From assembly GCA_963705305.1 (NCBI GenBank), contig OY970067.1:3456001-3520000 (forward strand): a stretch of DNA of 64,000 nucleotides, read 5' to 3'. Source of the DNA: an uncultured Methylomirabilota bacterium. Lineage in GTDB: Bacteria > Methylomirabilota > Methylomirabilia > Methylomirabilales > 2-02-FULL-66-22. Shown piece by piece: positions 2,105 to 57,787 of the stretch. Position numbers and translations under genes: made by a program. Below the pieces are notes generated by a model. It was not told where the DNA came from, made no database searches, and was given only the letters and a program-made list of their open reading frames with translations. How positions within the stretch are numbered: the first letter of the stretch is position 1; the number at the start of each line of letters is the position of its first letter.

Positions 2105-2916
2105 TTGCGGTGGAGTGCTGGGAGGTGACCTATCGGTACCGCAGCGGCCGCGGTGTGGCGGGCGTGACGCTCCAGGTGTCGGCGGGCGAGCTGGTGGGCG
2201 TCGTGGGGCCGAACAGCGCGGGCAAGAGCACCCTGCTGCGCCTCCTGAGCAAGGTCCTGGCCCCGCAGCGCGGCCGAATCCTCATCCAGGGCCGGGATAT
2301 TTCATCCCTCAGCCGCCTGGAGGTGGCCCGGCTCGTCGCTGTCGTCCCGCAGGAGCTTCAGGTGGCCTTTCCGTTCACGGCGGCGGAGGTTGTTTTGATG
2401 GGCCGCTTCCCGCACACCGGGGGGCGCCGCAGCGCGACGGACCGGGCGGCGGTCTGGACGGCCATGCAGGCGACCGGGATCACCGACCTGGCGGGCCGGC
2501 GCATGGACGAGCTGTCGGGCGGAGAGCGGCAGCTGGTGTCCGTTGCGCGGGCGCTGGCCCAAGAGCCGGAGGTCTTCCTGCTGGACGAGCCCACAGCCCA
2601 CCTGGATCTCCAGCACCAGCGGCGCGTCCTGGAGATCCTGCTGGAGGAGCGGCGCGTCTCGCGACGCGCCACGATTCTGGTGTCCCACGACCTGGCTCTG
2701 GCGGCCGAGCACTGCGACCGCCTGATTCTCCTGGCGGACGGCTCTATCCTGGCCGCCGGCCTCCCCGAGGAGGTGATCACCACCCGAGCATTGGAATCGG
2801 CATTCGGCTGTCCCGTGGATGTCGAGCGGCATCCCCTCAGCGGGCGCCTGCATGTCCGGGGGCGCCTGTTCTCCCGGGACAGCCTCGTCGATCACGGCAC
2901 CACCCCCCGAATGTAA
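2101..2916 (+). CDS. btuD: ABC ATP-binding subunit, cobalamin/Fe-siderophore type
   Basis: Walker A GPNSAGKST, LSGGERQ signature, LLDEPTAHLD, SHDL. Confidence 0.9.
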   Translation: MIAVECWEVTYRYRSGRGVAGVTLQVSAGELVGVVGPNSAGKSTLLRLLSKVLAPQRGRILIQGRDISSLSRLEVARLVAVVPQELQVAFPFTAAEVVLMGRFPHTGGRRSATDRAAVWTAMQATGITDLAGRRMDELSGGERQLVSVARALAQEPEVFLLDEPTAHLDLQHQRRVLEILLEERRVSRRATILVSHDLALAAEHCDRLILLADGSILAAGLPEEVITTRALESAFGCPVDVERHPLSGRLHVRGRLFSRDSLVDHGTTPRM

Positions 2917-3090
2917 GGGAAGCTGGTTGGTCCGGGGGAAGGCGCGCAGCCGCCCACCCGGAGAATCCAGCACGGTCCCGCCACTGTGCGTGGGGAGCGA
3001 CCCCGCAGGATGCCACTGTCCCAAGCCGGTCGAGGGATGGGAAGGCGCGGGTGAGCGAGGATCCACAAGTCAGGAGACCTATTCGGGGGG
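2903..3090 (+). promoter_or_regulatory. Cobalamin (AdoCbl) riboswitch
   Basis: AAGGGAA-GCTGG..AATCCAGC-ACGGTCCCGCCACTGT, GCCACTG..GGGAAGG and AGTCAGGAGACCT motifs; P1 CCCCCCGAAT (2903-2912) pairs with ATTCGGGGGG (3081-3090); directly upstream of btuB. Confidence 0.9.
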
Positions 3091-3124
3091 CTGGCCCACG
3101 ACTTCGCGGAGAGGAGAGTGGCGC

Positions 3125-5062
3125 ATGTCTCCAACTAGCGTACGGTTTCTGCCCGCAATCATGGCCGGCATGCTGCTCTGGGCGTCGGCGCTCTGTCCCG
3201 GGCGGGGGGAGGCCCAGACCCCGTCGGATCAGGGGCCGGAACTGCCCCTGGAGGAGGTCGAGGTCACGGCCGCCCGCGTCCCCGAGACCCTCGCCCGGAC
3301 CGCGGCGGACGTGACGGTGATCACCCGGGCCCAGCTGGAGCAGCAGCAGATCACCACCGTGGCGGACGCGCTCCGCATGGTGCCGGCCCTGAATGTGGTC
3401 GAGTCGGGAACTCCCGGATCCGTGACCAGCGTGTTCGCCCGGGGGGGAAATTCCGACCACACGCTGGTCCTGATCGACGGCGTCCGGGTGAACAGTCCGA
3501 CCACCGGCATGTTCGATTTCGCCAACCTGACCACGGCCGGGGTGGAGCGGATCGAGGTGGTCCGCGGGCCGTCCAGCGCCCTGTATGGATCGGAGGGGCT
3601 CACGGCCGTCATCAACATCATCACCAGGAAGGGGGAGGGCACGCCTCAGGGCGGCATCGAGACGGAGGCAGGGTCCTACCAGACATTCCGAGAGCGGGGA
3701 TGGAGCGCCGGCGCGGCGGGTCCGCTGCGGTATTCCGTGGACGTCGCGCGGGATGACAGCAGCGGGAAATTCGCCCACGACGAGTACAACAATACCGCCG
3801 CGGCCGCCCGCCTGGACGCAGAGGTGCTGCCGACCCTCAGCCTGGATCTGTCCGCCCGCTACACCGATGCCTTCAAGAACCTGCCGGGGGTTACGGGCCG
3901 AACGGATTTCTTGACCGGGCAGCCCGATGCCACGCAGAGCAACCGGGAAGGCCTGACGACGGTGAGCCTGGGGGCAACGCACACCCCGACGGACTGGTGG
4001 AGCCATCGCCTTCAACTGTCGTACGTGGAGGACGACGTGGACTTCCGCGATCCGCAGGAAGACCAGGAGCTGGCCCAAGGACTGCTGACCTCGTCGGCAA
4101 CCGGCAAGACACATACGACCCGCCTGGCGGCGGACTGGCAGCATAACCTCCGGCCGGTCTCGTGGGATGCGTTGACCCTGGGCATGCAGGTGGAGCAGGC
4201 GAAAGGGGACCAGACAGATGTGTCCGGGGCCACGGTGCTGAACAAGACGTTCACCAACTACGCCTTCTACGGGCAGAACCAGGTGACGGTGTGGGACCGC
4301 CTGATCCTCACCGCCGGGCTGCGGGAGGACGACTACAGCACCTTCGGCAGCCATCTCAGCCCGAAGTACTCGGTCGCATACCTCCTGCCGGAGACCAACT
4401 CCAAGCTCCGCGCGAGCTACGGGGAGGGGTTTCACGCGCCGACCATCAACGATCTGGCCTACCCGGGCTTCAGCAATCCCAACCTGAAGCCCGAGCAGAA
4501 TCGCAGCCTGGAATTCGGCGTGGATCAGAGCCTGTGGACGGAGCGCATCCTGGCAAGCCTCACCTGGTTCCAGAGCCGCTTCCGAGACCTGATTCAATAT
4601 GATTACGCGACCAGCAAACCCGAAAACATCGCCCATGCCCGGACCCAGGGGGTCGAGGCCGCGCTGACGATCCGCCCCGGCTACGGGCTGAATGTCGTCG
4701 CCGGGTACACCTACCTGGAATCGCTGGATGACAACGGCCAGCCCCTGCTGCGGCGGCCGGAGAACAGCTGGAACTTCACGGTGAATTACGCGCCGCTGAA
4801 GCGGGTGAATCTGTATTCCACCCTTCTGTACGTGGGGAAGCGGGCCGACACGGATCCCGTCACGTACGCGGATGCCGAAAACTACAAGTACGTGACCTGG
4901 GGGGCGGGGGCCTCGGTCACGATCCTCGAGCGGGCGGGTTTCCTCCGGAACCTCCGCGCCCACGGCAAGCTGGACAATATCCTGGGGGTTCATTACCAGG
5001 AAGCCCTGGGATTTCCGGCCCTGGGACGCCGGTATACGCTCGGACTCTCGGGGGAGTTCTAG
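3125..5062 (+). CDS. btuB: TonB-dependent receptor, BtuB-like vitamin B12 transporter
   Basis: GAGGAG RBS; signal peptide; TonB-box-like EEVEVTA; plug motifs RGGNSDHTLVLIDG and ERIEVVRGPSSALYG; NPNLKPE; C-terminal Phe; downstream of a B12 riboswitch. Confidence 0.9.
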   Translation: MSPTSVRFLPAIMAGMLLWASALCPGRGEAQTPSDQGPELPLEEVEVTAARVPETLARTAADVTVITRAQLEQQQITTVADALRMVPALNVVESGTPGSVTSVFARGGNSDHTLVLIDGVRVNSPTTGMFDFANLTTAGVERIEVVRGPSSALYGSEGLTAVINIITRKGEGTPQGGIETEAGSYQTFRERGWSAGAAGPLRYSVDVARDDSSGKFAHDEYNNTAAAARLDAEVLPTLSLDLSARYTDAFKNLPGVTGRTDFLTGQPDATQSNREGLTTVSLGATHTPTDWWSHRLQLSYVEDDVDFRDPQEDQELAQGLLTSSATGKTHTTRLAADWQHNLRPVSWDALTLGMQVEQAKGDQTDVSGATVLNKTFTNYAFYGQNQVTVWDRLILTAGLREDDYSTFGSHLSPKYSVAYLLPETNSKLRASYGEGFHAPTINDLAYPGFSNPNLKPEQNRSLEFGVDQSLWTERILASLTWFQSRFRDLIQYDYATSKPENIAHARTQGVEAALTIRPGYGLNVVAGYTYLESLDDNGQPLLRRPENSWNFTVNYAPLKRVNLYSTLLYVGKRADTDPVTYADAENYKYVTWGAGASVTILERAGFLRNLRAHGKLDNILGVHYQEALGFPALGRRYTLGLSGEF

Positions 5063-47632: not shown

Positions 47633-49453
<1,821 letters not shown>

Positions 49454-49790
49454 CCTTCTCTGCCGCCCGCGGGCGTTGTGGTTGCGCCGGGGGATGGAAC
49501 GTCCACACCGCCAGAATCGGAAGACCAATGGGCCAAGGGCTCCTCGCCACCCGGGGGATCCGGACGGGCGTCTCGTGCCCACACGCCCCGGCGGGCCGGG
49601 TGATTGATCGGTCCGTCGGCTCCTCTCGCCTTGGTGTCTTCCCTTCGCTCTGCCTGCTATATCCCGCGTCGAAGCGTCTCCCGTTTCCAGAGGGCCGGGG
49701 CGGACCGGCTCGGGCCGCGTGCCACCGGCCCGCGCGCGGATCGTCGCCGGAGAAGGTGGTGCCGCAGAAAGCGGGCGAGAGGGGAAGACG

Positions 49791-50609
49791 GTGGCCAATC
49801 TGATCCAGCAGTTCCGCTGGATTGACGCCCTGGACATTCTGATCGTGGCGTTTGCCATCTACCGGATCATCCTGGCGCTTCGCGGCACCCGGGCGTTCCA
49901 GATGCTGATCGGGCTGGCGTTCCTGTACCTGGCCTCCTGGGTGTCCATGCGCATCGGGCTAGTGACCGTCAACTGGGCCCTATCCAACCTGCTGGCCGTA
50001 TGGCTTCTGCTCCTGATCATCCTGTTCCAGCCGGAGCTGCGGCGGGCCCTGGCCAGTGTGGGGCGGCGGGGGAGCCTGCTGCGCGCCTTCTCCCGGTACC
50101 AAGAGGCCCACATGATCGACGAGGTGGTGCGCGCCGTCACCTCGCTGGCGGCGAAGAAGGTCGGGGCCATCATCGTCGTAGAGCGGGACTCCCGCCTGTC
50201 GGATATCGTGGATTCGGGGACGACCATCGATGCGGTCGTGTCGCGGCGACTGCTGGAGTCGATCTTCTATCCGTACTCCCCCTTGCACGACGGGGCGGTG
50301 ATCATCAGCGACGATCGGATCGTGGCGGGGGCATGCTTCCTGCCCCTCAGCATCAATCCCGACCTTCCGCGGGATCTCGGCACGCGCCATCGCGCGGCGG
50401 TGGGCGTCACGGAAGAGAGCGACGCCATTGCCATCGTGGTGTCGGAAGAGACGGGGACGATCTCGCTGGTGGTGGGGGGTGAGATCACCCGGAACCTGGA
50501 TGCGGGCGCTCTGCGGCAGCGGCTCAGCGGCATGCTGCGGCCGTCCATGAAGCCCTTCATGTGGGGGCGCGGGCGGGCCCAGGGCGCGCTGCGAAATCCG
50601 GCCGAGTAG
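49791..50609 (+). CDS. cdaA: Diadenylate cyclase CdaA
   Basis: Three TM helices, FQPELR, HDGA, GTRHRAA, VSEETG. Confidence 0.95.
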   Translation: MANLIQQFRWIDALDILIVAFAIYRIILALRGTRAFQMLIGLAFLYLASWVSMRIGLVTVNWALSNLLAVWLLLLIILFQPELRRALASVGRRGSLLRAFSRYQEAHMIDEVVRAVTSLAAKKVGAIIVVERDSRLSDIVDSGTTIDAVVSRRLLESIFYPYSPLHDGAVIISDDRIVAGACFLPLSINPDLPRDLGTRHRAAVGVTEESDAIAIVVSEETGTISLVVGGEITRNLDAGALRQRLSGMLRPSMKPFMWGRGRAQGALRNPAE

Positions 50610-50725
50610 GTGGGTGTGACGGCTCCCGGGGCCGAGCGGCCACGCCGACGCAGTCCGTCGGTGGGCGGGGCGGGGGGCGGAGAGCGGGCCGGCGGCGGCC
50701 GGTACGGGGGCGAGCCGAAGAGATC

Positions 50726-51373
50726 ATGCGGGCCTGGCTGCTCAACAACCTCGGGCTGAAGCTCCTTTCTCTGATCCTCGCCGTTCTGCTCTGGGCGGTC
50801 GTGCTCGGCGAGCAGAAGGTGGACGTGACCGTGAGCGTTCCCGTGGTCCTCAATCTGCCGCCCAAGATGGTTCTCATGAACAATCCGGGGGATTCGTTCG
50901 AGGTCCGCTTGCGGGGCCCCCAGACGCTGGTGACGAACCTTCCCGCGCGGCAGGTGGTGTTGGATCAGGTCCCGGACACGTTCGAGGAGGGGGAGAACAT
51001 CATCTCCGTCCTGCCGAGCATGTTCCGGGCGCCCCGCGGCATCCAGGTGGTGGACGTCACTCCGCATCGCCTGCAGGTGGTCCTGGAGCCCCTGGCCGAA
51101 CGCGAGGCCGAGGTGATTCCGCGCATGGAAGGAGAGTTGGCGCCGGGGTTCGTGCTGCGCGGAGTGACCGTGAGCCCGTCGAAGGTCCGGGTCAGCGGGC
51201 CGTCCAGCGAGCTCGAGCGACTGGCGCGCGTCCGCACCGCGCCCATCAACCTGGAGGGTCATACGGACCCGTTCTCCGTCCAGGTTCTGCTGGAGCCCCC
51301 GGAGCGCCTGGTGCGGGTGAAGGGATCCGCGACCGTGACGGTGCAGGTGGACATCGGGCCGAAGAAATCGTGA
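50726..51373 (+). CDS. cdaR: CdaR/YbbR-domain protein
   Basis: [16 protein letters not shown] anchor, V.L.GP and P.KV.VSGP YbbR repeats; lies between cdaA and glmM. Confidence 0.87.
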
Positions 51374-51432
51374 GACGCGCGGCCGGGCCCGACCGGGCGG
51401 CCGGCCGCGCGCCCGCGCGCACGGAGAGAGGA

Positions 51433-52782
51433 ATGGGGCGGCTGTTCGGAACGGACGGGGTGCGGGGCGTCGCCAACCAGGAGCCCATGACCCCCGAGAC
51501 GGTGGTCAAGCTGGGACGGGCGGCGGCCCACCTGCTCAAGGCCGGCGGCGACCAGCGCAGCATCGTCATCGGGAAGGACACGCGCCTGACGGGCTACATG
51601 CTGGAGACGGCGCTCACGGCCGGAATCACCTCCGTGGGGGTGGATGCGCTGCTGGTGGGGCCGCTGCCGACGCCGGGGATCGCCTTCATCACGCGGAGCC
51701 TGCGCGCCGATGCCGGCGTGGTCATCTCCGCCTCGCACAACTACTACGAGGACAACGGGATCAAGTTCTTCTCCGGGGACGGCCTGAAGCTTCCGGACGC
51801 CCTGGAGGCCCGCATCGAAGAGCTGATCCTGTCCGGGGCCATCGACCGGATCCGTCCGGGGGCGCGGGAGATCGGCAAGGCCTATCGCATCGGGGACGCG
51901 GTCGGGCGGTACATCGAGTTCGCCAAGAACACGTTCCCCAAGGGACTGACCCTCCGGGGGCTGAAGGTGGTAGTGGACTGCGCTCACGGGGCAACCTATC
52001 GGGTCACGCCCGCGGTCCTGCGCGAGTTGGGGGCGGATGTGGTCGCCCTCAACGTCGCTCCCGACGGGCTGAACATCAACGCCGGCTGCGGCTCGCTGCA
52101 TCCCGAAGGCCTGCAGCGGGCGGTGGTGGCCGAACGGGCCCATATCGGCTTTGCGCACGACGGGGACGGCGACCGCGTGCTGGCCGTGGACGAGCGGGGT
52201 GCGCTGGTCGACGGCGACCAGATCCTGGCCATGTGCGCCCTGGATCTGCTGGCGCGGGGACGCCTGCCGCAGGAGACGCTGGTCGTCACGGTGATGAGCA
52301 ATATCGGGCTCGAAGTGGCCATGCGGGAGCGGGGCATCCGGGTCATCCGGACGCCGGTCGGCGACCGCTCCGTACTCGAGGAGATGCTGCGCGGCGGCTA
52401 TGTCCTGGGCGGGGAGCAGTCGGGCCACATTATTTTCACCGAGCACAACACCACCGGCGACGGTCTGGTCACCGCGCTGCAGGTGCTGGCGACCATGCTT
52501 CGCGTGGGCAAGCCGTTCTCCGAGTTGGCGGCGTGCATGCCGCGCTTCCCTCAGATCCTGGAGAACGTCCGGGTTCGGCGCCGGACGGATTTGGAGACGC
52601 TGCCGGGGGTACAGGCGGCCATCCGGGAGGCGAGCGCCGCCTTGGGGGAGACCGGGCGCATCCTGGTCCGGTTCTCGGGCACCGAGCCGCTGGTGCGCGT
52701 CATGGTGGAAGGGCCCGAGGAGGCTGTGATCCGCCGTCTGGCGGGACAGATCGTGGACGCCGTGCGGGTCGCCCTCGGGTAG
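51433..52782 (+). CDS. glmM: Phosphoglucosamine mutase
   Basis: [32 protein letters not shown]. Confidence 0.97.
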
Positions 52783-52847
52783 ACGGCGATGGAGGCGCGC
52801 AGCTCCGGCGGCCTGCCGCTCCGCCGGAGAAGGAGCAGCGGGACGGT

Positions 52848-53576
52848 ATGACCACCCTCTTTGTCGGGCTGGACGCGATGGTGGCCCTTCGCCGGTCGGG
52901 CGGGGGCCGTGACCCGGATCCCGCCCTGGCGGCCGCGCTGGCCGAGCTGGCCGGCGCGGAGGGCATTTGCATCGGCTGCCGGCGCGGGCGAGACGAGTCG
53001 ACGGTCCGAGACCTGCGGGTTCTCCGGGAGGTGGTCCGGACCACCCTGAACGTCTGCCTCTCCCCGGCGGAGGAGTGCCTCAGTGTGGTGCTGGATGTGC
53101 GGCCCGACCTGGCAACTTTCGTCTCCGAGTCGCGAGAGGGGTCCGGCGCGGACCAGGGGGTGGACGTTGAGGATCGCCGGGAGGAGCTCCTGCCCATGGT
53201 CGAGTCGCTCAAGAGCAGCGGGATTGCCGTGGGGGTCCTGGTGGATCCCAGTCCGACGCAGGTCAAGGCGGCACACCGGCTGGGGGCGGGGGTGGTCGTG
53301 CTGCACACCGGACGACTGGCCTGGGCGTCTGAACCGGCGGGGCGTGAGGCGGAGTTCGAGCGACTGGTGAACGCGGCCAAGATCGGACAGCGGCTGGGCC
53401 TTGCCATCCACGCCGCCGGGGGCCTGCACTACCAGAGCGTGGTGCCCGTTGCCCAGGTGGAGGAGGTCGAGACGGTCCACGTCGGGCACGGCCTGGCGGC
53501 CCGGGCCGCCCTGGTGGGCGTGCAGGAGGCGGTGCGCGAGATGCTGCGGAAGCTGGCCGGTGGCCGGAGCCGATGA
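52848..53576 (+). CDS. pdxJ: PdxJ (PNP synthase) homologue with a degenerate active site
   Basis: Length (242 aa), PDP..AA..AE.AGA.GI, LHTG and VGH motifs, and the glmM-pdxJ-acpS context; catalytic His/Glu residues replaced. Confidence 0.8.
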   Translation: MTTLFVGLDAMVALRRSGGGRDPDPALAAALAELAGAEGICIGCRRGRDESTVRDLRVLREVVRTTLNVCLSPAEECLSVVLDVRPDLATFVSESREGSGADQGVDVEDRREELLPMVESLKSSGIAVGVLVDPSPTQVKAAHRLGAGVVVLHTGRLAWASEPAGREAEFERLVNAAKIGQRLGLAIHAAGGLHYQSVVPVAQVEEVETVHVGHGLAARAALVGVQEAVREMLRKLAGGRSR

Positions 53577-53947
53577 TCCTGGGGTTGGGGACGGACCTGG
53601 TTCTGGTTTCCCGCGTGGAGCGCCTCCTCGTCCGCCATCGCGAGCGGTTCCTCGAACGAGTCTTCACAGCGGAGGAGTGCGCCGATTGCCTGGGCCGGGC
53701 GCGTCCGGCCCAGCACCTGGCCGCCCGCATGGCCGCCAAGGAGGCGGCCATGAAAGCCCTGGGCAGCGGCTGGGGGATGGGCGTGTCGTGGCAGGACATC
53801 GAGGTGCGGGCAGGGGGCGGGCCGCCGACGCTCTGCCTGCAGGGGGCGGCTCGCCGGCATGCGGAGCGCCTGGGGATCCGCCGGACGCTGGTCAGCCTGT
53901 CCCACGAGGGCGACTACGCCCTGGCGGTGGTGGTCGCCTCGGATTGA
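53573..53947 (+). CDS. acpS: Holo-ACP synthase
   Basis: GLGTDLV..R, AAR.AAKEA..KALG, SLSH. Confidence 0.95.
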   Translation: MILGLGTDLVLVSRVERLLVRHRERFLERVFTAEECADCLGRARPAQHLAARMAAKEAAMKALGSGWGMGVSWQDIEVRAGGGPPTLCLQGAARRHAERLGIRRTLVSLSHEGDYALAVVVASD

Positions 53948-53993: not shown

Positions 53994-55610
53994 ATGATCA
54001 AGGCGGTGACCGCGGACGAGATGCGGGAGATGGACCGGCGGACCGTGGCTGAGTTCGGTCTGCCCTCGCTCCTCCTGATGGAGAATGCGGGCGCGGAGAC
54101 GGCCCGGGAGATGCTCTCCGCCTTTCCGCGGCTCCGCCGCTCCTCGGTGGTCATCCTGTGCGGGCGGGGGAACAACGGCGGGGATGGCTTCGTGGTGGCG
54201 CGGCGCCTGCTGGCGCAGGGCGCGGCCGTGCGGACGCTCCTGCTGGGCCGGCGCGAAGAAGTGCGGGGCGACGCCCGCATCAACCTGGAGATCCTCGAGA
54301 AGCTAGGGGCGGCCCCGACGGAAATTCCCGCCGCCGACGGCCTCTCCGCCGTCCGGGAGCATCTCGCGGCCGCGGACGTGGTCGTGGACGCCCTGCTGGG
54401 GACGGGCGCCCAGGGACCGGCCCGGGGCTTTCTGGCCGAGGCCATAGCCGCCATCAATGCGGCCGGACGCCCCGTGGTATCGGTGGACATTCCCTCGGGG
54501 TTGGGGGCCGATGATCCCGATCCTCCCGGCCCGGCCGTACGCGCCACCCTCACCGTGACATTCGCGCTCCCCAAGCGGAGCCTGCTCCTGTTTCCGGGGG
54601 CGGCGTATGCGGGGACGCTGAAGATCGCGGACATCGGCATCCCGCGGCGGCTCGCGGCCGACCCGGCGCTCCCGGTGGGACTCCTGGAGGCGGCCGATGT
54701 GGCGCCGGCGTTTCCCCGCCGCGATCCGGCCTCCCACAAGGGTACCTTCGGACACGTCCTGGTGATCGCGGGCTCGGTTGGCAAGACGGGCGCGGCCGCC
54801 CTGGCCGGCCTGGGGGCCCAGCGGGTGGGGGCGGGGCTGGTGACGCTGGCGGTCCCGCAGAGCCTGAACGCCATCCTGGAGGTCAAGCTGACCGAGGTCA
54901 TGACCGTTCCCATCCCGGAGACCGACGCGCAGACCATGAGCCTCCGCGCCTTCGAGCCGTTGCTCCGACTGGCGGAGGCCAAGACCGCGATCGCGATCGG
55001 CCCGGGCCTGGGGACGCACCCGGAGACGCAGGAGCTGGTCCGGAAGCTCCTCGTGGGCCTCCGGCTGCCTCTGGTCGTGGATGCCGATGGTCTGAATGCG
55101 CTGGCGGGTCGCGCCGATATTTTGGCGCAGGCGTCGGGGCCGGTGGTACTAACCCCCCACCCCGGGGAGTTCTCCCGGCTGCTGGGGCTGGACCGGGACG
55201 TGCTGCTGAGGCGGCGTCTTTCGCTTGTTCGCGAGACGGCCCAGCGGCTGCATCTGACCGTGGTCTTGAAGACGGCCCGGACGCTGGTGGCCGGGCCGGA
55301 AGGCGACACCGCCATCGTTCCCACCGGCAATCCGGGAATGGCGACCGGGGGCACGGGAGACGTGCTGACTGGCCTCATGGCCGGGCTCCTGGCCCAGGGG
55401 GTGGCGCCGGTGCAGGCGGCCCGCGCCGCCGCCTATCTGCACGGCCTGGCCGGCGACCTGGCGGCCGAGCGGCTGGGGGCGGAGAGCATGCTCGCGGGAG
55501 ACCTGCTGGAGTCCGTTCCGGAGGCGATCCGGCGGGTGAAGGCTGCGGCGGACGATGGGGGCGGCCCGGCGACCGGGCGACCGGGTCATCCGGGGGGGTC
55601 CGGGGCCTGA
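53994..55610 (+). CDS. nnr: Bifunctional NAD(P)H-hydrate epimerase/dehydratase
   Basis: LMENAG, G.GNNGGDG, DALLGTG, VDIPSG, HKG..G, IGPGLG, DADGL, TPHPGE, GGTGDVL. Confidence 0.95.
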   Translation: MIKAVTADEMREMDRRTVAEFGLPSLLLMENAGAETAREMLSAFPRLRRSSVVILCGRGNNGGDGFVVARRLLAQGAAVRTLLLGRREEVRGDARINLEILEKLGAAPTEIPAADGLSAVREHLAAADVVVDALLGTGAQGPARGFLAEAIAAINAAGRPVVSVDIPSGLGADDPDPPGPAVRATLTVTFALPKRSLLLFPGAAYAGTLKIADIGIPRRLAADPALPVGLLEAADVAPAFPRRDPASHKGTFGHVLVIAGSVGKTGAAALAGLGAQRVGAGLVTLAVPQSLNAILEVKLTEVMTVPIPETDAQTMSLRAFEPLLRLAEAKTAIAIGPGLGTHPETQELVRKLLVGLRLPLVVDADGLNALAGRADILAQASGPVVLTPHPGEFSRLLGLDRDVLLRRRLSLVRETAQRLHLTVVLKTARTLVAGPEGDTAIVPTGNPGMATGGTGDVLTGLMAGLLAQGVAPVQAARAAAYLHGLAGDLAAERLGAESMLAGDLLESVPEAIRRVKAAADDGGGPATGRPGHPGGSGA

Positions 55611-55654: not shown

Positions 55655-56989
55655 ATGCAGATCGAGAAGAACGCGGACAAGCTGGTCAAGACGCTGCGGG
55701 TCATGATCCAGGACGAGCCGGGCTATCTCGGCAGGCTCTGCACGGCCATCGGCCAGGCGCGCGGGAACATCGGCGAGATACACATGGTGCGCGTCGGGCT
55801 GACCCGCATCGCCCGGGATCTTACGGTCTACGTGGATGACGAGCCCCACCTGCAGCGGGTGCTGGAGGCGATCCGTCCCCTCCAGGGGATCGAGGTGGTC
55901 GAGGTCGTGGATGAGGTCCTCAAGCGCCACGAGGGGGGCAAGATCGCCACCGTCTCGCGGTACCCGCTGGACAGCATCGCGGACGTGCGCAAGGTCTACA
56001 CCCCCGGTGTGGCCACCGTCTGCCGGCTCATCCACGCCGACCCCGACCTGGCGTCCCGCTATACCAGCATCGGCAACACGGTGGCCATCGTGACCAACGG
56101 GACCGCCGTCCTCGGGCTGGGCAACATCGGCCCCGTCGCAGGCATGCCGGTGATGGAAGGCAAGGCGGTGCTCCTGGAGCGGCTGGTGGGGGTGAACGGG
56201 GTTCCCATCCTGCTCACGACCCGGGATGCGACCGAGTTCGTCGAGGCCGTGAGCGGCATCGGGATGACCTTCGGGGCCATCAACCTGGAAGATGTCGCCG
56301 CGCCGGACTGCTTCGAGATCGAGCGGCGGCTTCAGGAGGCGCTGGACATCCCGGTGATGCATGACGACCAGCACGGCACCGGCGTGGTGGTGCTGGCCTC
56401 CCTGCTCCGCGCCTGTGCGCTGAGCGGCCTGACGCTGGCCCAGCAGACGGTCGGCATCATCGGCCTGGGAGCCGCCGGCATGGGCATCTCCAAGCTGCTG
56501 CTCTCCTACGGGGTCACGCGCCTCATCGGGACGGATTTGAAAGCGGAGGCGATGCAGCGACTGGAGGAGAGCGGGGGGCGGCGAGCGAGCCTGGAGGGGG
56601 TGATGGGGGAGGCCACCATCGTGGTGGCCACCACGGGGGCCCCCGGCCTGATTGCGCCCAGCCTGGTCCGGCGGGGGCAGGTGATCCTGGCCCTGTCCAA
56701 TCCCAACGCCGAGATCCAGCCGGAGCGGGCGCTGGCGGCGGGCGCGGCGTTCGCTGCGGACGGGAAGCTGGTGAACAACGCCCTCTCCTTCCCCGGGATC
56801 TTCCGGGGGGCGCTGGACACGCGCGCCCGGCGCATCACGGATGCCATGAAGATCACCGCGGCGGAAACCATTGCGGCGCGGGCGCCGGAGGGAGAGCTGG
56901 TGCCGGAGCTTCTGGACCGCACGATGCACCAGGCAGTGGCCCGGGCGGTCGCCGAGGCGGCAGTGCGATCGGGCGTGGCGCGCGCCTAG
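55655..56989 (+). CDS. NAD-dependent malic enzyme with an N-terminal ACT domain
   Basis: YTPGV, TNGTAVLGLG, MEGK, NLED, HDDQHGT, LSNP, NNAL.FPG; ACT-like DEPGYLG. Confidence 0.92.
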   Translation: MQIEKNADKLVKTLRVMIQDEPGYLGRLCTAIGQARGNIGEIHMVRVGLTRIARDLTVYVDDEPHLQRVLEAIRPLQGIEVVEVVDEVLKRHEGGKIATVSRYPLDSIADVRKVYTPGVATVCRLIHADPDLASRYTSIGNTVAIVTNGTAVLGLGNIGPVAGMPVMEGKAVLLERLVGVNGVPILLTTRDATEFVEAVSGIGMTFGAINLEDVAAPDCFEIERRLQEALDIPVMHDDQHGTGVVVLASLLRACALSGLTLAQQTVGIIGLGAAGMGISKLLLSYGVTRLIGTDLKAEAMQRLEESGGRRASLEGVMGEATIVVATTGAPGLIAPSLVRRGQVILALSNPNAEIQPERALAAGAAFAADGKLVNNALSFPGIFRGALDTRARRITDAMKITAAETIAARAPEGELVPELLDRTMHQAVARAVAEAAVRSGVARA

Positions 56990-57221
56990 GAGGCTGCTGA
57001 AAAACCCATTTTCGGTCAGGCTGCTCAAAAAGGCCCAGATGTCCCTCGACTTCGCTCGGGACCGTGAGCCCGCCGAACGGCAAGGCACCTCGCCGGGTAC
57101 CCATCCGCAGGATGGGTGCAGGCGCGAGGCGTACTCAGTATGTACGTCGCAGCGCCGCGGGAGCGCGGGGGCACCCGTCCGAAGGATGGGTCTCCGCAGA
57201 TGGGACTTTTTCAGCAGCCTG
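56990..57221 (-). mobile_element. MITE family A copy 6
   Basis: CTAG direct repeats at 56986-56989 (malic enzyme stop) and 57222-57225; GAGGCTGCTGAAAAA..TTTTTCAGCAGCCTG. Confidence 0.88.
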
Positions 57222-57256
57222 CTAGGCGGGCGGGGCCCCGGATTCGAGTACAGAGC

Positions 57257-57787
57257 ATGACGGTGCTGTCGCTTGGGGAGTGCGTGCTGGGCTGGGAGTC
57301 CGCGTCGGCGGAGGCGACCGAGGCGATGGGGGCGGCACTGGGACGCCTGCTATCGCCGGGCGATGTGGTGGCCCTGTTCGGGGAGCTGGGGAGCGGCAAG
57401 ACGGTGTTCGTGCGGGGCCTGGCCCGGGGACTCGGGTGCGATCCGGCGGAGGTCCACAGCCCCACCTTCACGCTGATCCACGAGTACGGCGGGATGCCCC
57501 GGGGGGGGCGGACCGCGCGGCTCGTGCACGTCGATCTGTACCGGATCCGGTCCGAGGACGAGGTGCCGGGGATCGGCTGGGACGCCTACATGAATTCCCG
57601 CGACGTGGTAGCGGTGGAGTGGGCGGAGCGGGCGGGCGGCCTGCTTCCCGGGGATCATCTGCGGGTTTGGCTGGAGGTGGCGGACGCCGATTGCCGCCGG
57701 CTGCGCGGGCAGGCTACGGGCCCGCGGTCCCTCGCGATCCTCTGCGAGTGGGTCGCCGCGGCGGGAGTGGCGGTGCAGGCCGCGTAA
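57257..57787 (+). CDS. tsaE: t6A biosynthesis ATPase TsaE
   Basis: GELGSGKT, SPTFTL..EY, HVDLYR, VEW. Confidence 0.93.
   Translation: MTVLSLGECVLGWESASAEATEAMGAALGRLLSPGDVVALFGELGSGKTVFVRGLARGLGCDPAEVHSPTFTLIHEYGGMPRGGRTARLVHVDLYRIRSEDEVPGIGWDAYMNSRDVVAVEWAERAGGLLPGDHLRVWLEVADADCRRLRGQATGPRSLAILCEWVAAAGVAVQAA

Follow-up and report, generated by a model that had tools for sequence, protein, structure and literature searches.

A gene of the Methylomirabilota that has the position, length and predicted fold of pdxJ, the gene for pyridoxine 5'-phosphate (PNP) synthase, encodes a protein without the catalytic residues of that enzyme. It lies between glmM and acpS in a 64,000-nucleotide stretch of contig OY970067.1 (GenBank assembly GCA_963705305.1) from an uncultured bacterium, here called the window, and will be referred to as the pdxJ-like gene (Table 1). 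We think it probable that its product is a pseudoenzyme or repurposed barrel, descended in place from pdxJ and retained under selection in a family that carries PdxS and PdxT. Clear homology to an enzyme family is combined with loss of the catalytic residues, and the gene is under purifying selection rather than in decay. A first-pass annotation, made from the sequence alone, had put the protein forward as a possible pseudoenzyme, or as a TIM barrel turned to another use, on the grounds that catalytic residues were lost without decay, and the alignments, the clade-wide comparison and the ratios of nonsynonymous to synonymous substitution rates (dN/dS) described below lend support to that proposal.

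The protein is a full-length PdxJ homologue, as had been stated: the Pfam model PF03740 matched it with 193.1 bits (cut-off 24.5) over profile positions 2-232 of 234, and a phmmer search against the sequences of the Protein Data Bank aligned it without gaps to E. coli PdxJ (1m5w, E 6.5e-41). E. coli residue numbers, which are the query numbers plus 2, are used here unless otherwise indicated. The substitutions N9G, H12A, R20G, H45G, H52E, E72C, T102G, T103A, E153V and H193G are present in this alignment, among them every one that had been listed by eye in the first-pass annotation, and D49G, R51D, G105Q and N190H come in addition; the former T102/T103 region reads GADQG. No histidine or glutamate was recovered at the catalytic positions. 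We take H45, E72 and H193 to be the catalytic acid/base residues of E. coli PdxJ and E153 to have a role in the transition state, while N9, H12, R20, R47, R51, H52, T102 and T103 presumably bind the substrates; of this latter set, R47 alone survives in the window protein. With N9, R20, H45, R51, H52, E72, T102, T103, E153 and H193 lost, the protein almost certainly cannot make PNP, and the known acid/base chemistry of PdxJ, with its known residues, is beyond it.

What has been kept are D11, R17, R47, the PDP motif, H155-T156-G157, G194 and G215-H216, and the early observation that the PDP, HTG and GH motifs were intact thus agrees with the 1m5w alignment. In PdxJ, the glycine loops of beta7 and beta8 hold the substrate phosphate, and their residues G194 and G215-H216 are found in the window protein and in 90-99% of its clade. 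None of the six pdxJ equivalog models of NCBIfam was matched above its cut-off: NF003625 gave the best score (188.3 against 190 bits), and TIGR00559, for which the cut-off is 192.75, gave 142.4 bits.

The losses are shared by the whole clade. A search of 5.8 billion proteins identified 109 clusters at 51-64% identity to the pdxJ-like protein, after which identity falls to about 40%; the catalytic losses are common to all of the 51-64% clusters, and the group at about 40% has every catalytic residue. Clade clusters that bear a name are assigned to candidate division NC10 or Methylomirabilis and are labeled pyridoxine 5'-phosphate synthase at the source. We set 114 sequences of the clade against 47 canonical PdxJ proteins from many phyla. 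The clade has lost the following residues that are conserved at 98-100% in the canonical proteins: N9, T15, R20, H45, R47, D49, R51, H52, E72, E100, T102, T103, G105, F133, E153 and H193, of which H45, E72, E153 and H193 are at 100% in all 47, and Y159, N199 and E211 (94-98%) are likewise gone. Because these sites are invariant or nearly so in the canonical proteins and replaced across 114 relatives, the pattern of substitutions is not due to chance.

Some of the replacements are themselves conserved, namely R20G (92%), R47G (88%), T102G (91%) and H193G (92%). Other positions of the former pocket vary within the clade: position 72 is Cys in 55% and Arg in 32% of the members, position 153 is Leu, Val, Arg, Thr or Trp, position 45 is Thr, Ser, Gly or Ala, and position 12 is His in 64% of the clade and Ala in the window protein. 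Furthermore, about 20 positions are conserved in the clade only, for example (in query numbering) E108, D109 and R110 at 98-100%, and also E113, R156, W159, H188, P72/P73, N175 and K178, H188 being E. coli position 190. The three new cysteines that had been noted at or next to former active-site positions do not make up a site common to the clade: Cys occupies the E72 position in 55% and the L46 position in 41% of the members, and on these frequencies we rejected the idea of a new metal or Cys site under conservation. All 107 aligned relatives have lengths of 238-274 aa.

Purifying selection is evident from the pairwise comparisons (Nei-Gojobori, NG86, medians). The dN/dS median of the pdxJ-like gene is 0.34, with 0.17-0.43 in the ten closest pairs, and in each of five pairs with values of 0.17-0.41, none of 1000 codon bootstrap replicates reached 1 (95% intervals between 0.10 and 0.74), so that the expectation of a ratio below 1 held. 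The medians of the neighboring genes are 0.23 for acpS, 0.23 for nnr, 0.17 for glmM, 0.14 for cdaA, 0.11 for ftsH and 0.50 for cdaR; that of canonical pdxJ in the sister families is 0.13, with saturated dS. Mean within-genus identities to the window proteins are about 88% for FtsH, 81% for GlmM, 80% for CdaA, 71% for Nnr, 71% for AcpS, 59% for the PdxJ-like protein and 52% for CdaR. Relative to glmM, the PdxJ-like protein diverges at 2.2 times the rate (12 pairs) and canonical PdxJ in the sister families at 1.0 times (199 pairs). Given this rate together with dN/dS values well below 1, constraint has been relaxed about two-fold, yet the gene is clearly constrained. When the search was widened across the order, 19 of the 20 additional family genomes had an intact copy; with the window genome included, no truncation was seen in 20 of 21, and the remaining genome, which is 76% complete, gave no match. 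Taken together, intactness in the relatives, purifying selection, about 20 newly conserved positions and the overlap with acpS (see below) argue that the gene is not decaying.

The distribution of vitamin B6 genes suggests a setting in which PdxJ catalysis could be spared. The pdxJ-like open reading frame (ORF) is the sole PdxJ match in the 5.65-Mb single-contig genome, in which PdxS (365 bits) and PdxT (213 bits) adjoin each other elsewhere. In a survey of 151 genomes sampled across the phylum, the family of the window genome (f1, this genome counted) had PdxJ in 8/8 genomes, low-scoring throughout (180-217 bits), and PdxS in 7/8, the one genome without a PdxS match being 96% complete. The sister families f2 and f3, of the same order, had canonical PdxJ in 15/18 and 12/12 genomes (296-343 bits) and PdxS in 0/30; the large-genome families f9 and f10 had PdxJ in 0/104 and PdxS in 98/104. 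Thus, three fates of a redundant enzyme gene are seen among close relatives: the enzyme kept, the gene deleted, and the dead barrel kept. One genome of family f8 (G001) contains both a canonical PdxJ in the slot (327 bits) and PdxS (371 bits), the kind of redundancy out of which any of the three fates could develop. These counts include unpublished genomes (G047 of f5, G029 and G058 of f9, and G198 of f3 in the wider search), and L031 from G047 is among the 30 canonical sequences used for dN/dS, synteny and trees; the conclusions are independent of the unpublished genomes.

The gene occupies the usual position of pdxJ in the cdaA-cdaR-glmM operon, as had been claimed, according both to Pfam annotation of the neighbors and to synteny with canonical pdxJ. 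The order ftsH-cdaA-cdaR-glmM-X-acpS-nnr was found in 7/7 genus relatives, as far as the contigs reach, and in seven public contigs of metagenome-assembled genomes (MAGs) titled Methylomirabilota, Methylomirabilia or Methylomirabilales, four of which are genus-relative contigs already counted. Canonical pdxJ comes after glmM in 28 of 30 sister-family loci, which are all those with an upstream flank, and is followed by acpS-nnr in most. Among Myxococcota and Thermodesulfobacteriota, canonical pdxJ is part of the cluster that ends in tsaE, and a partial cluster with canonical pdxJ was seen in one Planctomycetia MAG and one Aminicenantes MAG. In 4/5 relatives that lack PdxJ, glmM is directly followed by acpS-nnr (the glmM side was unmatched in the fifth), from which it follows that the gene is deletable and has been deleted from the slot. 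No PdxJ remnant was detected by tblastn (E 1e-3) in the glmM-acpS gap of about 300 nt (L085 1198-1501) of G011, a genome of the same order that lacks PdxJ and has PdxS.

A second degenerate lineage was encountered in a Myxococcota-like order, where three of 32 genomes searched contain two PdxJ homologues. One of these is a low-scoring copy (179-211 bits) in the slot ftsH-cdaA-cdaR-glmM-X-(acpS)-nnr-tsaE, which persists with or without acpS after it; none of the three slot copies has kept E72, E153 or H193, and other key residues are altered as well. The second homologue lies outside the slot, shares only 26-29% identity with the slot copy, and retains R20, H45, R47, R51, H52, E72, T102, E153 and H193. 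It is of a divergent type (D11N, H12K, T103S and G194D, the other key residues being unchanged) and may have been acquired horizontally, since it is only 36% identical to canonical PdxJ of Myxococcota. PdxS was not found in the two of these three genomes that were searched. In a mixture-model tree, the slot copies group with the canonical slot PdxJ of Myxococcota (97 in the Shimodaira-Hasegawa-like approximate likelihood ratio test, SH-aLRT), apart from the window clade, which points to an independent second case. Like the window protein, these slot copies combine the same slot and an intact gene of PdxJ fold with changes at R20, E72, E153 and H193 and with another source of vitamin B6, but the back-up is a second, divergent, catalytically complete PdxJ in the Myxococcota-like genomes and PdxS in the window genome. 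A further locus, L084 of G153, was not counted as a degenerate case: frame breaks interrupt both pdxJ and glmM (4001-4682 and 2576-3974), and a single-frame reading past the break is invalid. PdxS is present in this MAG, and the locus may hold either a truly decaying copy or long-read assembly errors.

Degenerate homologues also occur in the wider PdxJ family. An exhaustive search yielded 2979 matches among 1.84 billion cluster representatives; of the best 150 of these plus the query, 46 match at all of 16 key sites, 13 depart from the canonical residue at a single site, and 92 do so at two or more. These 92 of 151 would constitute a large, unexplored set of proteins of PdxJ fold with another role. 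Outside the clade, 70 representatives with at least six changes share structural residues only (R17, D57, P25, G38, P88, G215 and G226), and H193 is replaced by Gly in 59% of them. These counts are of clusters at 50% identity, among which fast-evolving sequences weigh too heavily and some entries may be erroneous. One, from a cluster with a Zixibacteria name, differs at 8/16 key sites. Four homologues (P0123, P0133, P0140 and P0161) are fusions of 397-433 aa, in which an N-terminal part precedes a PdxJ domain that takes up the last 230 residues; P0133 differs at 4 and P0161 at 7 of the 16 sites. The Protein Atlas returned PdxJ-family clusters only and no other lead.

The AlphaFold2 model of the window protein, based on an alignment of 107 relatives, has eight strands, a mean predicted local distance difference test score (pLDDT) of 91.3 and a predicted template modeling score (pTM) of 0.89, with low confidence only at loop 96-101, the former T102/T103 loop. 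Foldseek matched it with template modeling (TM) scores of 0.92-0.94 to six solved PdxJ structures, including 3gk0, 5dlc, 3f4n and 1ho1, from Burkholderia, Pseudomonas, Yersinia and E. coli. The (beta-alpha)8 barrel and the glycine-rich beta7/beta8 loops (G192-G193-G194 and G215-H216) are retained. According to the DSSP topology of the model, the gained E108-D109-R110, at the start of helix 4, and R156/W159 are predicted to map to beta-alpha loops of the catalytic face. Probably, production of pyridoxal 5'-phosphate by PdxS/PdxT made PNP synthesis by PdxJ redundant in one family of the Methylomirabilales, and a non-catalytic role then came into view. The pdxJ-like protein would be a folded, non-catalytic binding or scaffold protein, and its most likely target would be either a phosphorylated small molecule, which the retained glycine loops would bind, or another product of the conserved glmM-pdxJ-acpS-nnr module. 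A complex prediction with three chains (the pdxJ-like protein, AcpS and the N-terminal 230 residues of Nnr) gave a score of 0.00 and a mark of 0.32, and speaks neither for nor against binding.

Several points weigh against the interpretation of a retained, repurposed barrel. The case for a pseudoenzyme is built from sequence comparison and a predicted structure, the catalytic roles of H45, E72, H193 and E153 are those that we have assumed, and any ligand or partner is putative. PdxS-bearing relatives have deleted the gene cleanly, and any second role is dispensable there. Constraint is relaxed, as described above, and an overlap with acpS that is universal in the family allows the gene to be read as a relic of translational coupling. 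The FastTree and mixture-model trees did not group the degenerate clade with PdxJ of the sister families, and forcing the two together cost 22.7 log-likelihood units (approximately unbiased, AU, test, p 0.061), so that descent in place is argued mainly from synteny and a putative intermediate. Finally, the two degenerate lineages have no new motif in common except an Arg at query position 156. As they share no motif and the 70 homologues share only structural residues, our comparisons give no sign of one common new function among degenerate PdxJ proteins.

The barrel might alternatively have become a new enzyme that catalyzes another reaction on a phosphorylated substrate. It would draw on D11, H155 and H216, which are retained, together with two gains, H188 and the motif E108-D109-R110. 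We regard this as unlikely, although it would account for the purifying selection, for the retention of the phosphate-loop glycines, and for the newly conserved positions, several of which fall in the loops of the catalytic face; moreover, conserved glycines in place of the bulky R20, R47, T102 and H193 could enlarge the pocket. On the other hand, no gene of a new pathway was identified nearby, the neighbors being the same as for canonical pdxJ. A non-catalytic role is favored over a new enzyme because positions 9, 12, 45, 72 and 153 of the former pocket vary within the clade, a suggestive pattern.

A relic without a role for the protein is a different possibility: the ORF would be kept for the translational coupling of acpS, and possibly nnr, on a slow path to loss, with selection merely avoiding stop codons and a toxic misfolded product. 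The first-pass annotation had described an intact ORF of 242 aa coupled to acpS, and the ATG, the TGA and the ATGA shared by the pdxJ-like stop and the acpS start at 53573-53576 were all read in the sequence. Such an overlap is present in the window and in 14/14 family loci (10 distinct contigs; ATGA in 11 and TGATG in 3) versus 6/26 sister-family loci, which supports translational coupling. The about two-fold faster evolution of the protein relative to glmM and the outright loss of the gene in related PdxS-bearing lineages also fit a relic, as does the failure to find a terminator-like site between glmM and acpS, which is a weak test. Nevertheless, we hold this explanation to be quite unlikely. 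The dN/dS values are comparable to those of the functional neighbors acpS and nnr and lower than that of cdaR, residues newly fixed at 90-100% conservation are unexpected from the avoidance of stops alone, and a coupling leader could shrink, yet none of the aligned relatives has done so. Likewise, the Myxococcota-like degenerate copy persists whether or not acpS comes after it.

It has also to be considered that an old, divergent PdxJ-like paralog from elsewhere took the slot of the canonical gene. The separation of the clade from sister-family PdxJ in both trees, and the likelihood cost of joining them, would be expected from such a replacement, but at the 0.05 level the in-place tree survives the AU test, if not by a wide margin, and long branches play a part. 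In addition, the flanks are identical in the family and its sisters, with glmM upstream and acpS-nnr downstream. The nearest outgroup of the degenerate clade, P0121 (92 SH-aLRT), is itself partly degenerate: it retains H45, R47, R51 and E72 and has lost N9, H12, R20, H52, T102, T103 and H193. Its identities, 49-56% to canonical PdxJ of the Methylomirabilales and 46-52% to the degenerate clade, are as expected of an intermediate, and it may be one in evolutionary terms. P0121 is known from short assembled contigs only. We therefore consider a replacement improbable and divergence of the pdxJ-like gene in place from pdxJ very likely.

That the protein is still a PNP synthase with other residues, and that a route dependent on deoxyxylulose 5-phosphate (DXP) runs beside PdxS/PdxT, is hardly credible: although D11, R17, R47, G194 and G215-H216 are retained and a PdxA-family protein encoded elsewhere in the genome passes the TIGR00557 cut-off (350 against 290 bits), H45, E72, H193, E153, N9, R20, H52 and T102/T103, invariant in canonical PdxJ of many phyla, are gone, the score is under every pdxJ equivalog cut-off, and PdxA is above its cut-off in 57/93 and 10/11 relatives without any PdxJ. 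PdxA was accordingly rejected as an indicator of the pathway. The expectation that vitamin B6 would have to come from PdxS/PdxT in this organism is in keeping with the presence of both genes and the absence of a second PdxJ match in the genome; the part of that genome search that relied on PdxA found the gene but was uninformative. The PdxA copies of the genome sit in other contexts, next to Iso_dh/MgtC and to xylose-isomerase-like/DRL genes. Two PdxA-family genes look broken: L005 (G000:C1:653950-654822, minus strand) with the in-frame TAG, and L006/L007 (G000:C1:3743937-3744813), which lies in two frames and adjoins a LacI-type regulator.

Of the known systems, PdxJ itself (EC 2.6.99.2; PF03740; 1ho1 and 1m5w) is like the window protein in fold, length and ungapped alignment, at about 34-36% identity. 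The two share the slot glmM-pdxJ-acpS-nnr and D11, R17, PDP, HTG, G194 and G215-H216. Unlike PdxJ, the window protein is without N9, H12, R20, H45, R51, H52, E72, T102, T103, E153 and H193, falls under the equivalog cut-offs, evolves at about twice the rate relative to glmM and has conserved positions of its own. Plant PDX1.2 is a non-catalytic homologue of PdxS/PDX1 that acts by joining catalytic PDX1 paralogs. It resembles the pdxJ-like protein in being a barrel of vitamin B6 biosynthesis that has lost catalysis and been retained, but no catalytic PdxJ paralog is encoded in the window genome, and the enzyme from which the pdxJ-like protein descends is one of the other B6 pathway. A pseudoenzyme retained after replacement of its pathway is of a known kind, whereas this member, its phyletic pattern and the recurrence in the slot are, as far as we have seen, new. 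Our literature search found no description of a catalytically dead PdxJ; the supplements of one comparative study (PMC9997740), which lay outside the search, may list genomes with both pathways.

The window gene also belongs to an association of genes that has been noted before. According to Niehaus et al. (2018; PMC5938422), three phyla have yjeF (nnr) clustered with pdxJ and seven have it clustered with acpS, and a second function linked to vitamin B6 was proposed for the YjeF epimerase. The pdxJ-acpS-yjeF cluster is present in the window, but that paper takes pdxJ to be a working synthase, whereas in the window it appears to be catalytically dead yet retained. A tentative idea, which we consider doubtful on the present data, is that, beside catalysis, PdxJ has long had another, non-catalytic role linked to the widely conserved ftsH-cdaA-cdaR-glmM-pdxJ-acpS-nnr-tsaE cluster, and that this role alone keeps the barrel once a different B6 route has made catalysis redundant. 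One possibility for such a role is the unexplained link of the NAD(P)HX epimerase to vitamin B6. If true, it would explain why at least two lineages have come, each on its own, to hold a dead PdxJ in this slot, and why there are many degenerate PdxJ homologues in metagenomes. In any case, the recurrence in a conserved cluster offers a handle on the unexplained pdxJ-acpS-yjeF association (PMC5938422).

There is a consequence for annotation. The comparative study mentioned above (PMC9997740), the most recent one found, uses pdxJ as the signature gene of the DXP-dependent vitamin B6 pathway and calls it well annotated. Given the lost catalytic residues, the label of pyridoxine 5'-phosphate synthase that the clade carries in the databases would be wrong, and predictions of pathways and auxotrophies in these Methylomirabilales would therefore be wrong, as would, probably, those made for many uncultured lineages elsewhere.

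Table 1. The pdxJ-like gene, its neighbors in the window, and the two PdxJ homologues of the Myxococcota-like genomes.
Feature	Position	Strand	Basis or comment
ftsH homologue, opens the conserved cluster	47633..49453	+	tblastn matches are Peptidase_M41/AAA_lid_3 ORFs in L077 and L081
cdaA, diadenylate cyclase, DAC and CdaA_N domains	49719..50609	+	Pfam
cdaR-like, YbbR domain	50561..51373	+	Pfam
glmM, phosphoglucosamine mutase, four PGM_PMM domains	51370..52782	+	Pfam, synteny; 65 nt upstream of the pdxJ-like ORF
AAGGAG, Shine-Dalgarno-like	52830..52835	+	read directly from the sequence; 12 nt 5' of the pdxJ-like ATG
pdxJ-like ORF (P0001), 242 aa, ATG to TGA	52848..53576	+	predicted PdxJ-fold TIM barrel without the PNP synthase catalytic residues
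acpS, holo-acyl carrier protein synthase (PF01648)	53573..53947	+	Pfam; ATG overlaps the pdxJ-like stop
nnr/yjeF, YjeF_N epimerase and Carb_kinase dehydratase domains	53994..55610	+	Pfam
tsaE-like ORF, closes the conserved cluster	57116..57787	+	tblastn matches are Pfam TsaE ORFs in L077 and L081
Degenerate slot PdxJ, intact	L077 4001-4681; L081 4001-4681; L096 4697-5404		Myxococcota-like MAGs
Second PdxJ, outside the slot	L097 4048-4755; L098 4043-4756; L099 3925-4677		Myxococcota-like genomes

Two further observations concern the downstream part of the cluster. For nnr/yjeF, an alternative upstream ATG is present at 53859. An ORF of 444 aa (55655-56989, plus strand) separates nnr from the tsaE-like gene in the window, and the two genes are adjacent in other phyla.

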